Source: Pseudanabaena sp. UBA1465 (GTDB lineage Bacteria > Cyanobacteriota > Cyanobacteriia > Pseudanabaenales > Pseudanabaenaceae). Taken from it: a stretch of 32,000 nucleotides of DNA. Within the stretch, counting starts at the first letter, position 1. Each line of letters opens with the position of its first letter. Of this stretch, positions 11,941 through 21,368 are shown piece by piece. Location: positions 6,143 through 38,142 of the forward strand of contig DCSN01000229.1 in assembly GCA_002325645.1 (NCBI GenBank). The letters run 5' to 3'. The translations under genes and the position numbers were made by a program. The notes under the pieces are model-generated. The model ran no database searches. It was not told the DNA's origin and worked only from the letters and a program-made list of their open reading frames with translations.

Positions 11941-14109
11941 ATGTCTGAAACTATCCCTTCTATCCATGCCACACCTCACACTGTTAAAACCCTCTGCCCC
12001 TATTGTGGTGTCGGCTGTGGTTTGGAAATTGTGGAAACCACGAAAGAGCCAACCGTAAAATTTCCCGATCGCTTCAAAGTTCGAGGCGATCGCCGTCATC
12101 CATCTAGTCAAGGTATGGTCTGCGTCAAAGGCGCAACCGTTGCCGAATCCATTCAAAAGGATCGGCTATTACATCCAATGATGCGCGATCGCCTCGATCA
12201 AGAATTTCGCCAAGTCAGTTGGGAGCAAGCGTTTAGCGCGATCGTAAATCGAATTCAGAAAGTGCTGGCTACCACAGGGGCGGACGCTCTCTGTATGTTT
12301 GGTTCGGGGCAGTTTCAGACTGAGGACTATTACATAGCCCAGAAATTATTTAAAGGGTGTTTGGGAACCAATAATTTTGACGCAAATTCCCGTCTCTGTA
12401 TGTCTTCCGCCGTTTCAGGCTATGTCAAAAGCTTGGGAGCCGATGGTCCTCCCTGCTGCTATGAAGATTTTGAGTTAACTGATTGTCTATTTGCGATCGG
12501 TACAAATACTGCCGAATGTCATCCGATTATTTTCAATCGCTTTCGTAAATACCATAAAAAAAATCCCCATGTAAAGCTAATTGTCGTTGATCCACGCCGC
12601 ACTCAAACCGCCGAAGTTGCTGACCTCCATTTAGCGATTCAACCAGCAACAGATATTGATTTGTTAAATGGGATCGCTCACCTATTATTAAAATGGAATA
12701 AATGCGATCGCGCCTTCATCGAGAACCACACCACAGGTTTTGGTGAATTTCAAGAAATCACCGAACTTTATACTCCCGAATTTGTATCGCGGCGCTGTGG
12801 CATTAGCATCGAAGATTTGGAACTAGCTGCTAAATATTGGGCAGAATCGCAGCGAGTTCTCTCGATCTGGTCAATGGGAGTCAATCAATCCATTCAAGGC
12901 ACGGCAAAAGTGCAATGTATCATTAATCTGCATTTACTCACGGCTCAAATTGGGAAAGAAGGCACAGGTCCCTTTTCGCTCACAGGTCAGCCCAACGCAA
13001 TGGGAGGCAGAGAAGCGGGAGGTTTAGCCCAGTTATTACCTGGCTATCGCTTTGTCACTAATCCCGATCATCGTGCCGAATTAGAACAATTCTGGAATTT
13101 ACCTGCGGGACAAATTTCACCTCAAGTCGGTCGCACCGCATGGGATATCGTGCGCGGTTTAGAAGCCGATCAAGTTGATTTGCTCTGGATTGCGGCCACT
13201 AATCCCGCTGTTAGTTTTCCCGATTTAGTGCGAACCAAAGCCGCGTTAAGGCGATCGCCTTTCACCGTTTATCAAGATGCCTATTACCCCACCGAAACCT
13301 CTGAATTTGCCCATATCCTCCTGCCAGCAACCCAATGGAGCGAGAAGACTGGCACAATGACCAATTCTGAGCGTTGCGTCACTCTCTGTCAAGCCTTTCA
13401 GCCCCCTCTCGGTGAATCCCTTGCCGATTGGAAAATCTTTGCCGAAGTTGGTCGGAGATTAGGTTTTGCCGATAAGTTCCCATTCCAAAACTCCGCCGAG
13501 GTCTATGCCGAATTTGTGCAGATTACCCGCGATCGCCCTTGTGATATGACAGGTATTAGCCATGCCAAACTTGCGGAACTAGGCGCAATCCAATGGCAAG
13601 CTTCCGATCAACATCCTGAGCAAGATCAATTGCATAATAAGCGTCTCTACACCGATCTGCAATTCCATACAGGCGATCGCAAAGCTAGATTTGGAGCCTA
13701 TCATTCTCAAGGTGTATTTGAAGTTCCCGATGACCAGTATCCCTTCATTCTCACCAATGGCAGGGTATACGGACATTGGCATACGCAAACTCGCACAGGT
13801 CGCATTGATAAGATTCGGCAAATGTATCCGCATCCCTTTCTCGAAATCCATCCCAAAGATGCAGCTAGATTTTCCATTAACAATGGAGATTTAGTGGAAG
13901 TGAAATCACGACGCGGTTCTTCTAAGTTTCCTGCATTGGTGACGGAGGCGATCGCACGCGGTGTGTTATTTGTACCAATGCATTGGGGAACGCTCTGGGC
14001 GGACAATGCGGAAGCCAATGCTCTCACCCATCCCGAAGCTTGTCCCGACTCGAAGCAACCAGAGTTAAAGGCTTGTGCAGTGGCGATATCCTTAGTTAAT
14101 TTGCCTTAG
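11941..14109 (+). CDS. narB: Assimilatory ferredoxin-nitrate reductase (molybdopterin oxidoreductase)
   Basis: N-terminal 4Fe-4S motif CPYCGVGCG...C, followed by MopB-family blocks. It lies at the end of the nir-nrt cluster. Confidence 0.9.
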
Positions 14110-14121
14110 TAGATTTGTAGT

Positions 14122-14170
14122 AAGAAAAAACTTAAAAGTGTTGCGAAGCAACACTTTTAAGTTTTTTCTT
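14122..14170 (+). terminator. Terminator hairpin after narB
   Basis: aagaaaaaacttaaaagtgttgc gaa gcaacacttttaagttttttctt is a perfect 23-bp stem ending in a T-run. Confidence 0.7.
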
Positions 14171-14283: not shown

Positions 14284-14311
14284 GTAGGGGCAATTCATGA
14301 ATTGCCCCTAC
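14284..14311. repeat. Perfect 28-nt palindrome gtaggggcaattcatgaattgcccctac at the left edge of the NLR module
   Basis: Read directly from the sequence. It lies immediately left of the vestigial effector 3' end. Confidence 0.9.
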
Positions 14312-14322
14312 GCTGGAATACT

Positions 14323-14382
14323 AATAATGTAAAAGTGACGGGTGATATCAATTGAGATAATCTGACTTAGGAGGTTTAGGCG
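14323..14382 (+). pseudogene. Vestigial 3' end of a second Bell-like effector gene copy (encodes ...NNVKVTGDIN stop) plus the conserved Shine-Dalgarno spacer
   Basis: About three quarters of positions, by eye, match 15292-15351, the 3' end of the 164-aa gene plus its spacer. The match includes aatgtNaaNgtNacgggtgatat and the aggagg-N-ttagg-N-g ATG junction. Confidence 0.7.
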
Positions 14383-14808
14383 ATGGAAGAATTGTTAGAA
14401 CTTAAGGGATTTTTACTTGATGGCAATATCCATGAGGCTTTGCTGTTGGTTGAGGAAATGACGGAAATGAGCAAAGACGACAAGCTGAATAAAATCTCCA
14501 GTTTTGCAAAGCTCCTCTTGTTGCATTTAATCAAGCGCCAAGCCGAAGGACATACAACGCGATCGTGGGATGCTTCTATTGAGAATGCTGTCTATGAAAT
14601 TCAAAAAACTAATCGTCGTCGTAAATCTGGTGGTAACTACTTATCGATTGAAGAATTAAGGGAAGCCATAAGTGATGCCTATCGAGTGGCTCTGTCTAGT
14701 GCGGCGGCGGCGGCTTTCGGTGGTTGTTATACAGTGTCACAGTTAGCTGATATGGTCGATCGCAATACCATAATTCAAGAGGCGATCTCGTTAGTTTCTA
14801 GTAGCTGA
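14383..14808 (+). CDS. Small helical protein, DUF29-like (paralogue A1 of the NLR-operon accessory protein)
   Basis: 141 aa with an AGGAGG Shine-Dalgarno. It is about 65 percent identical by eye to the ORF at 15352-15783. The pattern LLVEEMTEMSKDDK...LLLHLIKRQAEGHTTRSWDASI resembles the DUF29 pattern (EEIE.L.....hhhHLLKW......RSW..TI). Confidence 0.75.
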   Translation: MEELLELKGFLLDGNIHEALLLVEEMTEMSKDDKLNKISSFAKLLLLHLIKRQAEGHTTRSWDASIENAVYEIQKTNRRRKSGGNYLSIEELREAISDAYRVALSSAAAAAFGGCYTVSQLADMVDRNTIIQEAISLVSSS

Positions 14809-14853
14809 GATAAAATCAAAATATTTATAAATTAGTAAATCATTGGTGTAAAT

Positions 14854-15348
14854 ATGGAGCCTGTTTCTTTGCTTATGGGTTTGTTGGTGATTGTGGGTAC
14901 AGGCTCATTAACTAAGGTTGGTGAAAATATTACCGATGAAACAGTGAAACTGGCTCGATCGCTCTGGTCAATTCTCAGTCGCAAGGCTCCAGATTCGCAG
15001 ACGGCTAGGTTAATTGAGGCAGGGAAAGAGATTGATTATCAGCAAGCGGTAATTGATGTGGAGGCGATCGCTGATGATCCTGATGTGATTAAGTTGTTGG
15101 ATGAAGTGCGATCGCTTTTATCTAGCAATCAAGAATTAGCGACGAAGGTTGAAGAGTTGGTGGTACAGGCTAAAATTGGGTCAAAAAGTGTACAAGTGAT
15201 GGCTAATGATATTGAGGGCGTAAACCTTCGCGCAAAATCGATGAAGCAAACAGCGCCATCGGTTAGCGGTTCGGTCGAGCAAACGATGTTAAAAAATGTC
15301 AAGGTAACGGGTGATATTGATTTGGGTGATTTAACTCAGGAGGCTTAG
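14854..15348 (+). CDS. Bell-like putative membrane-targeting effector with a C-terminal NLR-matching (amyloid-signalling-like) motif
   Basis: 164 aa. N-terminal hydrophobic helix MEPVSLLMGLLVIVGTGSL, a helical body, and the C-terminal tail QTMLKNVKVTGDIDLGDLTQ, which aligns with residues 9-28 of the downstream NB-ARC protein. Confidence 0.65.
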   Translation: MEPVSLLMGLLVIVGTGSLTKVGENITDETVKLARSLWSILSRKAPDSQTARLIEAGKEIDYQQAVIDVEAIADDPDVIKLLDEVRSLLSSNQELATKVEELVVQAKIGSKSVQVMANDIEGVNLRAKSMKQTAPSVSGSVEQTMLKNVKVTGDIDLGDLTQEA

Positions 15349-15351
15349 GTG

Positions 15352-15783
15352 ATGGAAGAGTTATTAGAACTGAAGGGATTTTTGCTCAGTGGCAATATCT
15401 CTGATGCTTTGTTGTTGGTGGAGGAGATGACAGAAATGAGCAAGGATGACAAAATCAACAAGATTTCTAGCTACGCGAAGATTGTCATCTCTCATTTGAT
15501 TAAACGGGCTGCGGAAAAACGCACAACTAGATCTTGGGATCTGTCAATCAAACATGCGGTTAACGAAATTCAGAAAACAAATCGGCGGCGTAAGGCTGGC
15601 GGTAAATATATTGCTGATTCTGAATTGTTCGAGACATTTAATGAGGCATATCCTTTTGCTTTAGATTTGGCTGCTGTTGAGGCGTTTGGTGGGCATTATG
15701 AATCGGCTGAGTTGGGTGCGATGGTTGATCGCGATCGCGTAATTCAAGAGGCGATCGCTTTAGTTTTGGGTGAGGCAACATGA
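15352..15783 (+). CDS. Small helical protein, DUF29-like (paralogue A2), translationally coupled to the NLR gene
   Basis: The ATG lies 4 nt after the stop of the effector gene (TAG GTG ATG) and behind an AGGAGG Shine-Dalgarno. The stop overlaps the next start (ATGA at 15780-15783). It starts MEELLELKGFLL, like A1. Confidence 0.75.
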   Translation: MEELLELKGFLLSGNISDALLLVEEMTEMSKDDKINKISSYAKIVISHLIKRAAEKRTTRSWDLSIKHAVNEIQKTNRRRKAGGKYIADSELFETFNEAYPFALDLAAVEAFGGHYESAELGAMVDRDRVIQEAIALVLGEAT

Positions 15784-18269
15784 CGACAGATCCGAAAAAT
15801 CAACAGTCGGCTTTACAAGGTAATGATGTGGGGCGCGACCTCACAATTGGTAACATCACTCAGACCATTAACTATAACCAAATTGTAGAGGAGGCAAAAC
15901 GGGCAGGAAGCTTGCTGAATCTTCCGCAGACTAATGTGACTTTTTTTGCGGGACGGGATGAGGATCTGGAAAAGGTGCATGAACTTTTGCAGAAAAATCA
16001 GAAGGTGGCGGTGTCTGCTTTTGTGAAAGGCATGGGTGGTGTCGGTAAGTCGGAACTTGCCCTGCAATATGCGTTACGGCATCTGTTGACGGACTATGGC
16101 GGCGGGATCTGTTGGTTACGGGGAAATGAGGGGACTTTGCCGACCCAGTTACAGGATTTTGTACAGGTGCAGCTTGGGGAAACGATGCCCGATGGGTTGA
16201 ATAGTGGCGAAAAGTTGGCAGGGCATTGCTGGCGGCGGCTATCGGAACGGGTGGCGGGGCAAATGTTGGTGGTGTTGGATGATGTGAAAGATTATGGGAA
16301 TGTGGAGCCATTTTTGCCAACCCTAGATGGCAAGTTTCGGGTATTGGTGACAACGCGGTTGGGATTGGGGAATGCGATGCAGCAATACAGGTTAGATGTT
16401 TTGGTGTTGGCGGCGGCAGTGGATTTGCTAAAGTCGTTTTTGCCTGAAGCCGATCCGCGTCGGGAGAATGAAGAAGCAATCAAAAATCTCTGTACATGGT
16501 TGGGGCGGTTGCCTTTAGCGATCGAGTTGGTGGGGCGGTATTTGGCTTTGCCGAATCAGTTAGATACTGGTATTTCTGAGATCTTGCAACGTTTGCAAGG
16601 GGAATGTATGGTGCAGCTTTCAGAAATTACTGATGAGGAAAGGAAGTTATTACCCAAAAATCTAAATGTGGCGGCTTCATTTTTCTTGAGTTGGCAAGAG
16701 TTGTCACCTTTGGCGCAACGTTTGGCTTGTTTGTTGGGTTTATTTGCTTTAGCGCCGATTCCTTGGACTTTAATCCAGTCTGTGATGCTAGATGAGACAA
16801 AGCAAAAACAATCTTTTTGGCAAGGTTTGCAAGGGCTGTTTCAAAAAAAAGCGGTGGCGCTTACGGAACGAGATTTGCAAGGGGCAAGGGGAGAGTTGCT
16901 AAATCTGCATTTGTTGGAACGGACGCAACAGGGAGTATATGAATTGCATCAGCTTTTGCGGGAATATTTTCAGTTTCAATTGCAACAACATCCCGAATGG
17001 CAAGTTTTGCGGCAACAGGTGGCGGTATCACTGCTGAATATTTCTAAGGGAATTGAAGAAATAATCACTATTGATCAAGTTAAAGAAGTTGCACCCGCGA
17101 TTCCCCATCTAGAAATACTCGGACGGGAAATGTTGGCTGTTATTCCCAATCCTGAAGATAATTTAGTTTGGGCATTTTTGGGAGTTGCTAGGTTTTACAA
17201 AGGTCAAGGGCTATATGCTTCAGCAGTAGATCCATATCAAACCTGCCTCAAAGTCTCCGAATCACACTTAGGAGCAGACCATCCCTCTGTCGCCACCAGT
17301 CTCAATAATCTCGCAGAACTTTACCGCGTGCAAGGAAAATACAGCGAAGCCGAACCTCTCTATCTGCGATCGCTCGAAATCAGGGAACGTCAACTAGGGG
17401 CAGACCATCCCGATGTCGCCCAAAGTCTCAACAATCTCGCAGGACTTTACAATTCGCAAGGGAAGTACAGCGAAGCCGAACCTCTCTATCGGCGATCGCT
17501 CGAAATCAGGGAACGCCAACTAGGAGCAGACCATCCCGATGTCGCCACCAGTCTCAACAATCTCGCGTTACTTTACGAATCGCAAGGGAAGTACAGCGAA
17601 GCCGAACCTCTCTATCGGCGATCGCTCGAAATCGATAAACGCATCTATGGAGAAGACCATCCCGAAATCGCAACAGATCTCAACAATTTCGCAGGTCTTT
17701 ACCGATCGCAAGGGAAGTACAGCGAAGCCGAACCTCTCTATGTGCGATCGCTCGAAATCGATAAACGCATCTATGGAGAAGATCATCCCGAAATCGCAAC
17801 AGATCTCAACAATCTCGCATTACTTTACAAATCGCAAGGGAAGTATAGTGATGCCGAACCTCTTTATCTGCGATCGCTCGAAATCAGGGAACGCCAACTA
17901 GGGGCAGACCACCCAGATGTCGCAATAGATATCAACAATCTCGCATTACTTTACGATAATCAAGGGAAGTACAGCGAAGCCGAACCTCTCTATCTGCGAT
18001 CGCTCGAAATCAGGGAACGCCAACTAGGGGCAGACCACCCAGATGTCGCCCAAAGTCTACTCAACTTAGCCGCTCTCTATCACAATACCCAACGTCATCC
18101 CGAAGCCCTGCAATCCATCCAACGCGCCATCCAAATTTACGAACAAAAACTTGGCACAGAGCATCCCAACACTCAAAATGCACTTGGTTGGCTTCAGACA
18201 ATCCGTGCAGCCAATAAACCTAGTTTTCCTATAGAATTCTTGCTAAACACAAAACCTCCTACCCCATGA
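15780..18269 (+). CDS. STAND NTPase: short N-terminal signalling motif + NB-ARC + TPR array (bacterial NLR-like protein)
   Basis: Walker A GMGGVGKS (16029-16052), Walker B LVVLDDV (16263-16283), RVLVTTR and GRLPLAIELVG (16503-16523). These are followed by about eight 42-aa TPR units of the kinesin-light-chain type (TPR_10/12-like). Confidence 0.9.
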   Translation: MTTDPKNQQSALQGNDVGRDLTIGNITQTINYNQIVEEAKRAGSLLNLPQTNVTFFAGRDEDLEKVHELLQKNQKVAVSAFVKGMGGVGKSELALQYALRHLLTDYGGGICWLRGNEGTLPTQLQDFVQVQLGETMPDGLNSGEKLAGHCWRRLSERVAGQMLVVLDDVKDYGNVEPFLPTLDGKFRVLVTTRLGLGNAMQQYRLDVLVLAAAVDLLKSFLPEADPRRENEEAIKNLCTWLGRLPLAIELVGRYLALPNQLDTGISEILQRLQGECMVQLSEITDEERKLLPKNLNVAASFFLSWQELSPLAQRLACLLGLFALAPIPWTLIQSVMLDETKQKQSFWQGLQGLFQKKAVALTERDLQGARGELLNLHLLERTQQGVYELHQLLREYFQFQLQQHPEWQVLRQQVAVSLLNISKGIEEIITIDQVKEVAPAIPHLEILGREMLAVIPNPEDNLVWAFLGVARFYKGQGLYASAVDPYQTCLKVSESHLGADHPSVATSLNNLAELYRVQGKYSEAEPLYLRSLEIRERQLGADHPDVAQSLNNLAGLYNSQGKYSEAEPLYRRSLEIRERQLGADHPDVATSLNNLALLYESQGKYSEAEPLYRRSLEIDKRIYGEDHPEIATDLNNFAGLYRSQGKYSEAEPLYVRSLEIDKRIYGEDHPEIATDLNNLALLYKSQGKYSDAEPLYLRSLEIRERQLGADHPDVAIDINNLALLYDNQGKYSEAEPLYLRSLEIRERQLGADHPDVAQSLLNLAALYHNTQRHPEALQSIQRAIQIYEQKLGTEHPNTQNALGWLQTIRAANKPSFPIEFLLNTKPPTP
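17205..18215 (+). repeat. Tandem 126-bp (42-aa TPR) repeats: six near-identical units (17331-18086) flanked by degenerate units
   Basis: The unit start caagg(g/a)aa(g/a)ta recurs at 17331, 17457, 17583, 17709, 17835 and 17961, an exact 126-nt period. Every unit contains a HIP1 site (GCGATCGC, encoding RSLE). Confidence 0.95.
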
Positions 18270-18294: not shown

Positions 18295-18627
18295 TTAAAC
18301 TTCTTCATCTAAAAAAGGTAAAAGATCCTCTAAGTCTCTCATCCCATGCAAAACTCTTAGAACTTCGACTCGATCCTCTAGAACCTTGTAAAAAATCAAA
18401 TAATCCTTAAAATTCTTAATTCGCCATTGACGGATCGTTCCCATATCAGACAAAACTAATGGCACAACCCTACCCATATTGGGAGTTATCCCTAGCTGCG
18501 CGAAAGCATACTCAGCAAATTCTAGAAATCTCTCAGCCGCATCTCGATTTCCCATCGCTAAAATATAATTTGCCTGTCGCCTGATATCTTGGGTAGCGTG
18601 ATCGCGAACAATTATCGGAAAAGTCAT
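18295..18627 (-). CDS. parE: ParE-family toxin (RelE/ParE superfamily)
   Basis: MTFPIIVRDHATQDIRRQANYI...AAERFLEFAEYAFAQL...IRQWRIKNFKDYLIFYKVLEDRVEVLRVLHGMRD is the typical ParE pattern. The start is taken at the ATG at 18625-18627, 5 nt after the parD stop. Confidence 0.8.
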   Translation of the reverse strand: MTFPIIVRDHATQDIRRQANYILAMGNRDAAERFLEFAEYAFAQLGITPNMGRVVPLVLSDMGTIRQWRIKNFKDYLIFYKVLEDRVEVLRVLHGMRDLEDLLPFLDEEV

Positions 18628-18632
18628 ACTTG

Positions 18633-18887
18633 CTACTGCTCTGTTCCAAGTACCGACAATCGGAGATCTTGCCAATAAGCTGAAGTTACCAGTTCAGGCT
18701 CTGAGTTCAAACCCTCTTGTAACAAACTCACTAGTTTTGTCTGAGCCTCCCTCCTTTGCCGATCTTGATTCAGCAAAGCCAGAAAATAATCCGCCACAGT
18801 ATTATAAGTTCCAGACTGAATCTGTCCTTGAACATAGGACTCAAGTTCTTTTGGTATTGGAAAACTTACATTCATAAACCTTTTCAA
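18633..18887 (-). CDS. parD: ParD-family antitoxin
   Basis: MNVSFPIPKELESYVQGQIQSGTYNTVADYFLALLNQDRQR is the ParD4/COG3609-like pattern. It sits directly upstream of parE. Confidence 0.75.
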   Translation of the reverse strand: MKRFMNVSFPIPKELESYVQGQIQSGTYNTVADYFLALLNQDRQRREAQTKLVSLLQEGLNSEPELVTSAYWQDLRLSVLGTEQ

Positions 18888-18923
18888 GATGAATAAAGTA
18901 CTGCCAATAATTTTAGCATTAGT

Positions 18924-19004
18924 CGAGAACTAGGCGCAGACCATCCGACAACTCAAAATGCACTTGGTTGGCTTCAGGTGAGCAAGGAAAAAGGAAAAGG
19001 GTAA
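18924..19004 (+). pseudogene. Relic of an NLR/TPR gene 3' end (RELGADHPTTQNALGWLQVSKEKGKG stop)
   Basis: Positions 18951-18977 are identical (27 nt) to 18171-18197 in the intact NLR gene. No upstream coding body is present. Confidence 0.75.
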
Positions 19005-19076
19005 AAGGAAAAATGTGGATTTTTTGAGTTTTGTTGGTTGATGTTATCTTAGGACATAGGATTAGGCTAAAAGTAT

Positions 19077-19328
19077 ATGTATCAAGTCACACTAAATTAC
19101 GCCAAAGCAAACCTTGATGAACTATGCGATCGGGCAGGTCAAGAACCAGAAGGAGTAGCGATCGTTCGTGAAAATCGCAGTTATATTCTGATTACTCAAG
19201 AAGAATGGGAATCTCTAATTGAAACTGCGGAATTAATGCAATTACCCAACCTGCTCACCCAAGTTGCATCTGCTCGCCAAGAATATCAAGCAGGAGAAGC
19301 ACTCTCTATGGAGCAAGTCTTTGGATGA
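19077..19328 (+). CDS. Phd/YefM-family antitoxin
   Basis: MYQVTLNYAKANLDELCDRA....VAIVRENRSYILITQEEWESLIETAELM is the typical Phd/YefM fold pattern. It overlaps the next gene by ATGA. Confidence 0.8.
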   Translation: MYQVTLNYAKANLDELCDRAGQEPEGVAIVRENRSYILITQEEWESLIETAELMQLPNLLTQVASARQEYQAGEALSMEQVFG

Positions 19329-19582
19329 AAATCTACAGAGTCCTCTTTTCTAAACAAGCTCAAAAAGATATCAGCGAACTCACATCTAAACAAAAAGCAA
19401 AACTCCAAGAAATTTTGCTTAACACACTCGCCCCCAATCCTTACCTCGGAAAAGCGCTAAAAGGTGACCTGAACGGTTTGCGTTCCTATCGTCTTAACCT
19501 CAAAGATCGCATTGTTTACGAGATTTATGAAGAAGACCAATCAATATTGATCATTAGAGCAAAAACTCACTATGGAGAATAA
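19325..19582 (+). CDS. relE: RelE/ParE-family toxin
   Basis: KIYRVLFSKQAQKDISEL...GKALKGDLNGLRSYRLNLKDRIVYEIYEEDQSILIIRAKTHY is the RelE/StbE-like pattern. Confidence 0.8.
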   Translation: MKIYRVLFSKQAQKDISELTSKQKAKLQEILLNTLAPNPYLGKALKGDLNGLRSYRLNLKDRIVYEIYEEDQSILIIRAKTHYGE

Positions 19583-19799
19583 CTACAGCATTTCTATCCA
19601 ATGGTCAGAAGAAGACCGTAAATTTATCGCTCACTTACCCGAATTTGGTCCCTACGCCCACACTCACGGCGACACCTACGCTCATGCCCTAGAAAATGCC
19701 CTAGAAGTTTTGGAATTACTAATTGAGGATTACACCGCTCGTCACAAACCCTTACCAACACCACGCATAATTAAAAAATCCGACTTCATTGCAGCTTGA
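19572..19799 (+). CDS. hicB: HicB-family antitoxin-like protein (no intact hicA partner)
   Basis: YSISIQWSEEDRKFIAHLPEFGPYAHTHGDTYAHALENALEVLELLIEDYTARHKPLPTP is the HicB/UPF0150 pattern. It overlaps the relE 3' end by 11 nt. Confidence 0.75.
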   Translation: MENNYSISIQWSEEDRKFIAHLPEFGPYAHTHGDTYAHALENALEVLELLIEDYTARHKPLPTPRIIKKSDFIAA

Positions 19800-19819
19800 T
19801 AAGAGTAGACTATCTATCT

Positions 19820-20002
19820 GTTACCACCAGTCTCAACGGTCTCGCATCACTTTACGAATCGCAAGGGAAGTACAGCGAAGCCGAACCTCTTTATGTGTGA
19901 GCTATCCAAATCCTTGAAAAAGCCCTTGGTTCCGAGCATCCCAATACCGTCACAGCCCGCCAAAATTATGAGATTATGTGCGAAACCATGAAGGAGACAT
20001 AA
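19820..20002 (+). pseudogene. TPR gene fragment with an in-frame stop (VTTSLNGLASLYESQGKYSEAEPLYV-stop-AIQILEKALGSEHPNTVTARQNYEIMCETMKET)
   Basis: It is nearly identical to the TPR unit of the NLR gene (tacgaatcgcaagggaagtacagcgaagccgaacctct). A TGA replaces the Arg codon expected in LYxRSLEI. The body 5' of it is missing. Confidence 0.8.
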
Positions 20003-20107
20003 ATGGGAAAATACGAAAAATTTAGACAAAAACTGCTTGATGGCGGCAGCGACAACAGTAATGCAATTAAGAAAAAGAAAAAATCGCAAATACTGAATCT
20101 ACCATAA
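20003..20107 (+). pseudogene. Possible truncated hicA-like toxin remnant (34 codons)
   Basis: MGKYEKFRQKLLDGGSDNSNAI resembles the N-terminus of one HicA subfamily as I remember it. The rest (KKKKKSQILNLP) is unrelated and short. Confidence 0.3.
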
Positions 20108-20120
20108 CCAGAACCTAACC

Positions 20121-20381
20121 ATGAATACATCCACTAAAACCATCAAAGTTTACGATGAAATTGTTGACTTTATTGCATCTGGCACAACGCCCCAGAGCGT
20201 AATCGACTTCCATCTTTCTGAAGCCGCACAAGAGCGCTTAGAAGATTTAATATACAACGCTAAAAACAATGCGCTTACAAAAGAAGACAAGCGTGAACTA
20301 GACCATTTCCTGACAATAGAACATATATTGACCCTAGCCAAAGCTAAAGCCCATAGATACATCAACACTGAGGCTAAATGA
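20121..20381 (+). CDS. Small helical protein of unknown function, coupled to the downstream HNH nuclease gene
   Basis: 86 aa. Its stop lies 1 nt before the next ATG. The C-terminal half EDKRELDHFLTIEHILTLAKAKAHRY is amphipathic and helical. Confidence 0.6.
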   Translation: MNTSTKTIKVYDEIVDFIASGTTPQSVIDFHLSEAAQERLEDLIYNAKNNALTKEDKRELDHFLTIEHILTLAKAKAHRYINTEAK

Positions 20382-20382
20382 A

Positions 20383-20823
20383 ATGCCTCGAACCTATATT
20401 AGCGTTCAGCTAAGGCAATTAGTCATCGAACGCGCTGACAGCATTTGTGAATACTGTTTGGTTTCAGCATCAGATAGATCCTCTAGTTGCCAAGTTGACC
20501 ACATCATTAGCGTGAAACATGGCGGCGATTCGACAGCCGAAAATCTTTGCTATGCTTGCCTATTCTGTAACCTGCAAAAAGGCACAGATCTAGGCTCGAT
20601 TAATTGGCGAAGCGGAGAACTTGTCAGATTCTTTAACCCTCGTAGAGATTTATGGAGAGAACATTTTCAACTAGATGGAGCGATAATTCGATCAACTACA
20701 GATATCGGCGAAGTCACAGCAAGAATCCTTGATTTTAATGATGCAGATCGTATTTTAGAGCGACAAATACTCATCGAAAATAACAGATATCTATCAACAG
20801 CAGCCAAAAAGAAAATAGGCTAA
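20383..20823 (+). CDS. HNH endonuclease
   Basis: CEYC...QVDHIISVKHGGDSTAENLCYACLFCNLQKG contains CxxC, the HNH His-Asn core and a second CxxC zinc ligand pair. Confidence 0.8.
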   Translation: MPRTYISVQLRQLVIERADSICEYCLVSASDRSSSCQVDHIISVKHGGDSTAENLCYACLFCNLQKGTDLGSINWRSGELVRFFNPRRDLWREHFQLDGAIIRSTTDIGEVTARILDFNDADRILERQILIENNRYLSTAAKKKIG

Positions 20824-20844
20824 ATAAGTTAAACTAAGGCGATC

Positions 20845-20866
20845 GGTTGGCTTCAGTAGATCCGTG
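20845..20866 (+). repeat. Third short relic of the NLR gene 3' end (ggttggcttcag ta gatccgtg)
   Basis: It matches 18186-18207 of the intact gene (GWLQ.IR region) with 3 mismatches. Confidence 0.55.
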
Positions 20867-20907
20867 ATGTCCTGTAAAATAAGAAGATAAAGCGATCGCA
20901 AAAAACA

Positions 20908-21117
20908 ATGACTACCAAAGAAAAGCTAATTCAAGAAGTCGAAAACATTTCTGAATCATTATTAGCAGAAACCCTTGACTTTGTATTGTTTCTCAAATCT
21001 CGCTATGCAGAAGAGGAAATAACTACAGAAGAAAAAGAAAACATTCTCGCTTCTCAAACAGCCTATCTTTCAGGTGATTACCTAACCCTCGACCAATACG
21101 AGGCAAATCAAGCATGA
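20908..21117 (+). CDS. Antitoxin-like small protein (DUF2281-like)
   Basis: KEKLIQEVENISESLLAETLDFVLFLKSRY is the DUF2281-type N-terminus. It overlaps the downstream relE-type gene by ATGA. Confidence 0.65.
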   Translation: MTTKEKLIQEVENISESLLAETLDFVLFLKSRYAEEEITTEEKENILASQTAYLSGDYLTLDQYEANQA

Positions 21118-21368
21118 GCTATCGCATCGTTATCCCTAAACCCGCCCAAAAGCAACTAGATAACATCACAAAAATTGAACGCGATCGCTTGATTCTAACA
21201 TTGCGCTCTCTAGCCAACGATCCGCGTCCGAACGGAGTTAAAAAGCTCAAAGGCTACGACAATACCTATCGTGTCAGAGTTGGAGACTATCGCATTATCT
21301 ACGAAATTAAAGACAGAGAGCTAATTGTATTATTGTTAAGTGTCAGTCATCGTAAAGATGTCTACTAA
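21114..21368 (+). CDS. relE: RelE/ParE-family toxin
   Basis: YRIVIPKPAQKQLDNI......L..LANDPRPNGVKKLKGYDNTYRVRVGDYRIIYEIKDRELIVLLLSVSHRKDVY is the canonical RelE pattern. Confidence 0.85.
   Translation: MSYRIVIPKPAQKQLDNITKIERDRLILTLRSLANDPRPNGVKKLKGYDNTYRVRVGDYRIIYEIKDRELIVLLLSVSHRKDVY

Follow-up and report, generated by a model that had tools for sequence, protein, structure and literature searches.

A DUF29-subfamily gene recurs between the effector and receptor genes of predicted Bell-BASS4/NB-ARC-TPR pairs in Pseudanabaena and other cyanobacteria

Results

Organization of the operon

In a 32,000-nt stretch of DNA from Pseudanabaena sp. UBA1465 (contig DCSN01000229.1; hereafter the window), we analyzed four tightly packed genes, A1, B, A2 and C (Table 1). 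B encodes a putative Bell-domain effector and C a STAND (signal transduction ATPases with numerous domains) NTPase of the nucleotide-binding oligomerization domain-like receptor (NLR) type. A1 and A2 encode related small proteins of a DUF29 subfamily, here called A, and A2 fills the gap between the effector and receptor genes. The evidence below indicates that B and C make up a predicted amyloid-signaling pair of a known kind, and that A is a recurrent companion of such pairs.

The four same-strand, near-abutting open reading frames (ORFs) lie where a first-pass annotation of the sequence had placed them, and both junctions that it singled out are present in the DNA. At the B/A2 junction, an AGGAGG ribosome-binding site precedes the B stop codon TAG (15346–15348), which is followed by GTG and then by the A2 ATG at 15352, leaving a gap of 3 nt; at the A2/C junction, the A2 stop TGA (15781–15783) and the C start ATG at 15780 share an ATGA overlap. 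C begins 431 nt past the B stop, on the same strand. A scan of the operon for promoters and terminators returned only the narB terminator, with no terminator-like site between A1 and the end of C, and an Rfam scan of the operon returned no RNA family.

B and C as a predicted amyloid-signaling pair

Residues 1–105 of B form a helical domain that starts MEPVSLLMGLLVIVG; its opening MEPVSLL belongs to a hydrophobic helix of the ‘MEPIS’ type with an acidic residue at position 2. In the AlphaFold2 (AF2) model, helices span residues 3–105 at a predicted local distance difference test score (pLDDT) of about 75, and residues 109–164 are disordered, with a pLDDT below 45 in the tail. An MEPxS N-terminal helix is conserved in Bell, Hell, Bab and Avast2 proteins and is required for killing (10.1101/2024.11.07.622273). 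The N-domain of B is 78% identical to protein P0214 of our set (BBC24761.1), the Bell side of a bacterial amyloid signaling sequence (BASS) pair of type BASS3 from Pseudanabaena sp. ABRG5-3, which is listed in Table S2 of the study describing these pairs and was recovered there by the authors' Bell hidden Markov model (10.1101/2020.01.06.895854). B itself matched no family in Pfam, NCBIfam, PADLOC or PHROGs.

The tail of B, VEQTMLKNVKVTGDIDLGDLTQE, differs in one residue from the published BASS4 motif VEQTMLKNVKVTGDIDLGDLSQE of PPJ64015.1 from Cuspidothrix (22/23 identical), and the recurrence of this tail at the N-terminus of C, noticed in the first-pass annotation, withstands a statistical comparison: residues 142–162 of B align without gaps to residues 8–28 of C with a BLOSUM62 score of 36, higher than in any other window along C and attained by 0.5% of shuffles (p = 0.005). 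The motif of C, QQSALQGNDVGRDLTIGNITQ, is also similar to NLR-side BASS4 motifs from the literature, for example ILQNVQVGGNLTTGNITQ and ILENVWAGRDITIGDIHQ, and it is 82–91% conserved in loci with NB-ARC domains that are just 32–36% identical. A division of the B tail into two HET-s-like pseudo-repeats (VQVMANDIEGVNLRAKSMKQ versus TMLKNVKVTGDIDLGDLTQ) was rejected, as it aligned no better than shuffles (p = 0.69).

In C, a profile search recovered both the NB-ARC domain (Table 1), with the motifs GMGGVGKS (Walker A), LVVLDDV (Walker B), RVLVTTR and GRLPLAIE, and eight TPR_12/TPR_10 stretches, in keeping with the NB-ARC signature and about eight TPR units read from the translation beforehand. 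The TPR array is highly self-similar, and each repeat unit contains a HIP1 octamer (GCGATCGC), a genome signature of cyanobacteria, at an exact spacing of 126 nt (17366, 17492 ... 17996); this points to concerted evolution of the predicted sensor domain or to shuffling of its repeats. For Bell/BASS-linked NLRs, internal repeats of high conservation have been reported as a hallmark (10.1101/2020.01.06.895854).

We found 188 relatives of B, essentially all from Pseudanabaena, which have in common a 105-residue N-domain starting MEPVSLL. On this conserved domain the family carries at least five unrelated, swappable C-terminal tails, and the tail type found on the effector of a related locus is also the one that the N-terminus of its downstream NLR matches. 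As judged by the resemblance to BBC24761.1, the BASS4 tail, the MEPxS helix and the match between the tail and C, B and C are predicted to be a member of the known Bell-BASS4/NB-ARC-TPR amyloid-signaling pairs; the reading proposed at first pass is thereby tied to two published proteins, and amyloid behavior of the motifs is likewise a prediction.

A1 and A2 as members of a DUF29 subfamily

DUF29 (PF01724) is an uncharacterized, mostly cyanobacterial family. Both A proteins exceed its Pfam gathering cut-off of 22.5 bits (A1, 32.2 bits; A2, 31.5 bits), which upholds their earlier description as DUF29-like, and the match is partial, covering profile positions 29–113 of 138. They are 68% identical to each other, close to the 65% estimated by eye. 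Over the whole gene the ratio of nonsynonymous to synonymous substitution rates (dN/dS, Nei-Gojobori) is 0.096 with synonymous sites saturated, and in codons 1–40 the proportion of synonymous differences (pS) is 0.80 against a nonsynonymous proportion (pN) of 0.066. Given the low dN/dS and the saturated synonymous sites, A1 and A2 are old paralogues, both maintained by purifying selection, as had been suspected.

The A subfamily is without the first canonical DUF29 helix, carries an NRRRK-GG-Y loop, and has an invariant N-terminal MEELLEL...VEEMTEMSKDDK segment (MEELLEL...EEMTEMSKDDK). The AF2 model of A2 (pLDDT 90) is an all-helical bundle with the NRRRKAGG hairpin loop at residues 78–85. At residues 11–30 of A2 (15382–15441), the invariant N-terminal hairpin LLSGNISDALLLVEEMTEM gave repeated weak matches to designer pentatricopeptide-repeat (PPR) proteins in a PDB profile search, none of them singly significant, and it may be a TPR/PPR-like helical hairpin.

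Clustered at 50% identity, the A subfamily comprises 495 clusters, nearly all of stand-alone proteins of about 140–170 aa. The single long match, a 651-aa glycosyltransferase-4 protein with a terminal A domain (P0270), was considered as a Rosetta-stone fusion and set aside, since it probably stems from a merged gene call. A matched no family of antitoxins or of DNA-binding proteins. The possibility that A is a phage- or plasmid-borne gene was likewise rejected: IMG/VR and INPHARED held no match, and plasmids a single distant DUF29 protein (Gloeocapsa, 32% identity), which argues that A is chromosomal.

A-family genes beside Bell and NLR genes in other genomes

The first-pass annotation had staked its proposal on A-family genes being linked to Bell-like or STAND genes elsewhere, and in this respect the outcome was strongly positive. 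The survey was restricted to one genome per species and started from 429 A relatives, of which 80 loci (925 kb) were kept; locus numbers (L) below refer to this set. A Bell-like gene or a C-like NB-ARC gene lies within 2.5 kb of A in 37/80 loci, and the linked fraction is 24/30 for A proteins at least 70% identical to A2, versus 13/50 below 70%. The polarity has no exception: each of the 25 NB-ARC genes found across the surveyed 925 kb is on the strand of A, downstream of it and within 2.25 kb, and all 35 Bell-like genes are on the strand of A, 33 of them within 300 nt.

Eleven further loci (L007, L018, in which the Bell gene is frameshifted, L019–L022, L024, L025, L027, L060 and L069) repeat the tight Bell-A-NLR sandwich of the window: 3 or 24 nt separate the Bell stop from A, and the stop codon of A abuts or overlaps the start of the NLR gene. 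These loci contain three unrelated Bell-like N-domains, one of them of a Nostocales type, and their NB-ARC domains are 32–39% identical to that of C. One of them, L069, is the published Cuspidothrix BASS4 pair, and the 433-bp distance listed for it is exactly taken up by the A gene PPJ64014.1, whose annotation reads ‘DUF29 family protein’. Papers on bacterial amyloid signaling or STAND systems in the searchable literature mention no third gene, and for DUF29 that literature holds a single incidental mention (among yeast two-hybrid self-activators) with no functional statement, in line with the earlier remark that no DUF29 role in NLR/Bell systems had been described. Taken together, A appears to be a recurrent, co-directional accessory of cyanobacterial Bell/NLR loci that has not been described in the searchable literature.

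At least three loci scored as unlinked (L012, L033 and L034) have A directly before a split system made up of a KAP-like STAND NTPase and a TPR_12 protein (Table 1). In Pseudanabaena minima Chao 2107 and strain SR411 this order, with the TPR_12 protein encoded separately, occupies the 3′ side of narB, as the operon does in the window; in L012 (Snowella) it stands at another site. Small ORFs downstream in L033 bear BASS-like C- and N-terminal motifs. The narB 3′ flank looks like a variable defense hot spot that retains its A gene. Tandem arrays of two to three A copies, 3 to about 100 nt apart or with a 4-nt overlap, were seen in L043 (7998–9314), L064 (3978–4841), L037 (6110–6993) and L007 (3251–4219).

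Duplication history and mosaic structure

In front of A1 lies a pseudogenized remnant of a BASS4 tail (Table 1), overlooked in the first-pass annotation, which aligns at the DNA level with the 3′ end of B, including the ribosome-binding site. Where B reads NVKVTGDIDLGDLTQEA*, the remnant reads NVKVTGDIN*DNLT*EV*; its remnant score is 46 against a 95% background of 19, and its AGGAGG (14369–14374) is now the ribosome-binding site of A1. Since the remnant matches both the end of B and this site, the duplicated unit was Bell gene, BASS4 tail and A rather than A alone, the upstream Bell gene having decayed to 57 nt while A1 stayed intact. Similar tail remnants precede the upstream A copies in L008, L026, L030 and L035, longer Bell fragments precede an intact A in L018 (frameshifted), L023, L029, L083 and L086, and at least 11 loci have an intact A beside a decayed Bell gene. 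A1 is 84–86% identical to the A protein encoded between B and a C-like NLR in Pseudanabaena lw0831 and UWO311 (L021 and L025), and A2 falls in another clade than A1. The window shares the order A1-B-A2 with L008 and L026, whose downstream NLR differs.

Comparison of the window with other loci gives very uneven identities. Relative to L007 and L020, the BASS4 tail is 87–90% identical, A 74–97% and the NLR N-terminal motif 90%, whereas the NB-ARC domain is 32–36% and the Bell body 76–80% identical. Relative to loci with a second effector family (L019, L024 and L027), A is 73–75%, the NB-ARC domain 35–38% and the Bell body 24–34% identical, the tail and N-terminal motif not being comparable. A is thus 59–97% identical across loci in which Bell bodies are 24–34% and NB-ARC domains 32–39% identical, and is the best conserved gene of these mosaic loci. 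The high identity of tail, A and N-terminal motif next to divergent bodies indicates that BASS4 tail, A and NLR motif have been exchanged as a block between differing effector and receptor bodies.

The second family of effectors (153 aa, MSDPLTASVLVGLAVQKF..., with the tail VEQIGARDVNAAGDAVFKVKQT) is in every case encoded 24 nt before A (L019, 7515–7976; L024, 7365–7976; L027, 7482–7943; also L009, L049 and L073), and its tail string is absent from the published pair table. Where the contig continues, effector and A are followed by an NLR starting MSEQQ.NQTG.KDVSVGGNLTANLDQ. Some NLRs carry tandem N-terminal motifs, a BASS4-like ALENVTAGGDVNANISQ and then a BASS5-like NKLAEKIGIAVSGGVVNVENL (L008, 7878–10442; L023, 10662–14165; L035, 2718–5105), and these loci hold, or formerly held, effectors of both tail types, which hints that one receptor may address two effectors.

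Chromosomal context

The operon is flanked by the nirA-nrtABCD-narB nitrate operon on one side and by an island rich in toxin-antitoxin genes on the other. HIP1 octamers number 50 in the window versus 0.56 expected from shuffles, with sites inside B, A2 and C as well, and exact sequence matches are to Pseudanabaena; together with the flanking genes, this points to the operon being a long-resident part of a Pseudanabaena chromosome. An identical A2 protein, in an unchanged order of genes, is encoded on 23 contigs from metagenomes. The 28-nt palindrome upstream of the tail remnant is single-copy in the window and was not produced by shuffles; it may be a repeat element, or the scar of a deletion that took out the upstream Bell gene. 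Downstream of C, positions 18295–21200 are densely packed with small genes of toxin-antitoxin type: a ParE gene with a minus-strand partner, a PhdYeFM and ParE-like pair, a HicB-like ORF, an HNH protein gene and a second ParE pair.

Table 1. Positions of features in the window and of inserts and gene sets in surveyed loci
Feature	Sequence	Positions	Strand	Remarks
narB	window	11941–14109		molybdopterin oxidoreductase; upstream of operon
Intrinsic terminator-like hairpin	window	14124–14168	+	20-bp stem and T run; ends narB; 5′ boundary of operon region
Perfect 28-nt palindrome	window	14284–14311	.	GTAGGGGCAATTCATGAATTGCCCCTAC; between narB terminator and BASS4-tail remnant
Pseudogenized BASS4-tail remnant	window	14326–14382	+	NVKVTGDIN*DNLT*EV*; 57 nt before A1
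A1	window	14383–14808	+	141 aa; ORF
B	window	14854–15348	+	164 aa; Bell-domain effector (predicted)
BASS4 amyloid-signaling motif of B (predicted)	window	15277–15339	+	EQTMLKNVKVTGDIDLGDLTQ; aa 142–162
AGGAGG ribosome-binding site for A2	window	15338–15343	+	embedded in terminal Q-E-A codons of B
A2	window	15352–15783	+	143 aa; in-frame GTG at 15349
C	window	15780–18269	+	829 aa; NLR-type STAND NTPase
NLR-side BASS4 motif of C (predicted)	window	15801–15863	+	QQSALQGNDVGRDLTIGNITQ; aa 8–28
NB-ARC domain of C	window	15957–16613	+	aa 60–278; PF00931, 48.7 bits (cut-off 23.5)
Self-similar TPR array of C	window	17269–18058	+	126-nt tandem repeat, 6.3 copies, 86% matches
Toxin-antitoxin insert in Bell-NLR gap	L096	5405–5892		
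Toxin-antitoxin insert in Bell-NLR gap	L014	8876–9351		
Toxin-antitoxin insert in Bell-NLR gap	L030	8961–9627		
Toxin-antitoxin insert in Bell-NLR gap	L037	7473–8154		
Toxin-antitoxin insert in Bell-NLR gap	L035	2310–2776		
A - STAND - TPR_12	L033	7992–10713		
A - STAND - TPR_12	L034	7992–12093		
A - STAND - TPR_12	L012	7968–11596		

Discussion

Comparison with known systems

B and C agree with the published Bell/BASS pairs (10.1101/2020.01.06.895854) in that a C-terminal motif of about 21–25 aa recurs at the short N-terminus of a collinear NB-ARC/TPR protein, that this partner lies within 5 kb (here with the NB-ARC domain from residue 60 and a 431-nt gap), that the TPR repeats are highly self-similar, and that relatives of B and the exact motif type appear in Table S2 of that study. 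The published pairs are, however, two-gene units, 57% of them 10 bp apart or less, whereas in the window a DUF29 gene of 141–143 aa occupies the gap and a second copy lies upstream. The one published pair with such a gap, that of Cuspidothrix (433 bp), was passed over by the authors without comment (10.1101/2020.01.06.895854).

Two further systems share this logic. Bab/Agp of E. coli consists of adjacent genes with a common amyloid motif and a small helical effector whose ‘MEPIS’-type helix is needed for killing, and it provides experimental proof that the architecture defends against phage; it differs in its motif (BASS11), in a shorter Babybell domain of about 80 aa and in having no third gene (10.1101/2024.11.07.622273). 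In fungal HET-S/NWD2, the N-terminal motif of the NLR templates the C-terminal motif of the effector, and a membrane-targeting N-terminal helix is released; the HeLo domain and the motifs are different, there is no intervening gene, and HET-s has two pseudo-repeats, whereas none is supported in the B tail. To our knowledge, fungi use amyloid-templated NLR signaling, a single proof of it comes from E. coli, and for cyanobacteria it is so far only a prediction.

Like other Pfam DUF29 members, A1 and A2 are small, stand-alone helical proteins; they differ by the missing first helix, the MEELLEL start and the NRRRK-GG-Y loop. Canonical DUF29 genes were found just nearby in L032 and L048. The A subfamily thus seems to be the first DUF29 group with a reproducible gene-neighborhood link. 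Type II toxin-antitoxin cassettes (HicAB, MNT/HEPN, RelE/ParE) resemble A in being small, co-directional, tightly packed and found in the identical Bell-NLR slot. A is, in contrast, a single gene without a toxin-antitoxin or DNA-binding domain, and its association with Bell and NLR genes is far tighter than that of a generic cassette.

A proposed cell-death module with a coupled accessory

The reading that we favor, with a probability of roughly 0.5, is that the operon encodes a resident Bell-BASS4/NB-ARC-TPR cell-death module together with a coupled DUF29 accessory, A, whose role is related to the system. By analogy with the published family, C would detect a trigger through its self-similar TPR array and oligomerize through the NB-ARC domain, upon which its N-terminal BASS4 motif would take on an amyloid fold and template the matching BASS4 tail of B. 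The hydrophobic MEPVS helix of B would then be freed into the membrane, and the cell would die before the phage could spread. A would stand outside this minimal relay, as a regulatory accessory produced in step with B and C. Of the regulatory roles, the most plausible is that of a brake by which the Bell protein or the NLR/BASS junction would be kept silent before the trigger arrives, a tentative proposal that we consider rather unlikely in this exact form.

A number of observations weigh against a role of A in signaling, and they do not support the third component of the first-pass proposal as an obligatory one. First, pairs occur without A. Other published BASS4 pairs are 6 bp apart and leave no room for it (10.1101/2020.01.06.895854); in a B-family/NLR pair of Pseudanabaena ABRG5-3, HicA-HicB fills the gap and A is not found within 5 kb; and among B-centered loci an A gene or remnant is adjacent in 7/11 and absent in 4/11 (the B-centered metagenome scan was swamped by degenerate patterns and returned nine loci, to which two look-ups were added). 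Second, A occurs without pairs: 24 well-flanked A loci have neither a Bell nor an NB-ARC gene, which leaves at least 21 after subtraction of the three split STAND systems, and the neighbors of such lone A genes are EngA, ABC transporter, tRNA synthetase, Uma2 and DUF2281 genes. Judged from this gene content, A must have a function that needs no Bell or NLR gene in cis. Third, HicAB, MNT/HEPN or RelE-like cassettes take the place of A in the Bell-NLR gap of sister loci (Table 1).

Searches for a functional clue gave no biochemical hint of any role suggested for A at first pass (inhibitor or antidote of the effector, chaperone of the prion-like motif, co-sensor). The 495 A clusters contain no informative domain fusion and so offer no clue to a brake role. 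With the A model, Foldseek found nothing in the PDB below E = 0.5, and PDB sequence and profile searches returned spurious PPR-repeat and coatomer matches only. In PADLOC, A1 had a weak match to SduA/DUF4263 that falls short of significance (E = 0.0016), A2 had none and C a generic TPR hit, and PHROGs gave nothing significant for A or B. The effector side of the reading is affected as well: the fold expected from the Bab crystal structure, with four helices cupping the hydrophobic N-terminal one, would resemble solved pore-forming death domains, and Foldseek with the B model, whose domain has a pLDDT of about 75, found nothing in the PDB below E = 1 and Bcl-2-family entries among the insignificant matches only; Bell models are stated by the authors to vary widely in topology (10.1101/2024.11.07.622273). 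As A paralogues are 70–80% identical, one copy might conceivably act in trans on pairs without their own, which weakens the argument for dispensability without removing it. As a side observation, toxin-antitoxin inserts account for the ‘distances’ of 466 and 476 bp published for Pseudanabaena pairs.

Alternative roles of A

Much of the above is what would be expected if A had no role in NLR signaling and were an autonomous small gene of a greatly expanded cyanobacterial DUF29 family that collects in variable defense loci, co-transcribed merely through joint duplication and recombination with the BASS4 tail. The lone copies, the tandem A-A and A-A-A arrays and orphans (L007, L037, L043 and L064), the toxin-antitoxin pairs in the same slot, the Bell/NLR pairs that work, or at least exist, without A, the inheritance of the tail-A junction as a block, and the absence of domain fusions and of defense-database matches are all compatible with such a passenger. 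Its polarity and proximity, however, go far beyond co-residence in an island (25/25 NB-ARC genes downstream, 35/35 Bell-like genes on the same strand), 24/30 close relatives are linked, and start-stop coupling is retained across divergent NLR classes. Moreover, A stays intact under strong purifying selection while adjoining Bell genes decay, and there is no sign of a mobile lifestyle, A being absent from phages and represented on plasmids by one distant DUF29 protein (32%). We regard a passenger as possible, if somewhat unlikely. A more novel reading, that the subfamily serves cyanobacterial amyloid-signaling NLR systems as a dedicated third component, blocking spontaneous prion-like firing by binding to the NLR or the BASS motif, or else acting as a guarded bait, we consider unlikely.

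Two narrower roles appear improbable. In one, A would neutralize the Bell effector or cap its BASS4 tail, so that B and A would form a toxin-antidote pair overridden by the NLR. A does lie at a fixed distance of 3 nt or 24 nt after Bell-BASS4 genes (17 plus about 8 loci), Bell genes have decayed beside an intact A (at least 11 loci), which would follow if prior loss of the antidote were lethal, and the order of toxin then antidote with coupled translation resembles HicAB. But A can be missing where this Bell N-domain bears a BASS3, BASS5 or other tail, Nostoc BASS4 pairs lack A in cis, A also stands before Bell-less STAND/TPR systems and alone, and one nearly invariant A would need to bind three unrelated Bell-like N-domains. 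In the other, A would be a DUF29 decoy or co-sensor hit by phage factors, and the TPR array of the NLR would fire when A is modified or sequestered. The most constant partner of A is indeed a downstream STAND NTPase with TPR_10/TPR_12 repeats, including the Bell-less split KAP-like systems; A hardly varies even where the NLRs next to it differ greatly, which fits a shared bait, and free-standing A/DUF29 genes elsewhere could be the real targets. Against this, the TPR arrays are self-similar and fast-evolving, which argues for variable rather than conserved ligands, NLRs of the same class occur without A, and DUF29 offers no precedent. An A-B type II toxin-antitoxin module is not supported, as pairing is not obligate (at least 24 well-flanked A loci are without a Bell gene, and Bell genes occur without A) and A matches no antitoxin or DNA-binding family.

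Implications

The Bell-BASS4/NLR pair is thus of a kind already known, whereas the searchable literature contains no description of the recurring DUF29 insert, of how it was duplicated or of the mosaic block. Even if A is a passenger, (i) these loci are seen to be recombination mosaics that exchange BASS tail, A and NLR motif, (ii) the Bell-NLR gap is a preferred landing site of small cassettes, and (iii) the ‘distance’ values in published pair tables conceal genes. The linkage of A to Bell and NLR genes would give DUF29 its first functional context. We know of no regulator of amyloid-templated NLR signaling in any bacterium, and A, as a conserved small protein encoded between two amyloid motifs, is a candidate for keeping a self-propagating death switch off. 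If A were a dedicated third component, PF01724 would gain its first function, and bacterial amyloid signaling its first known regulator.

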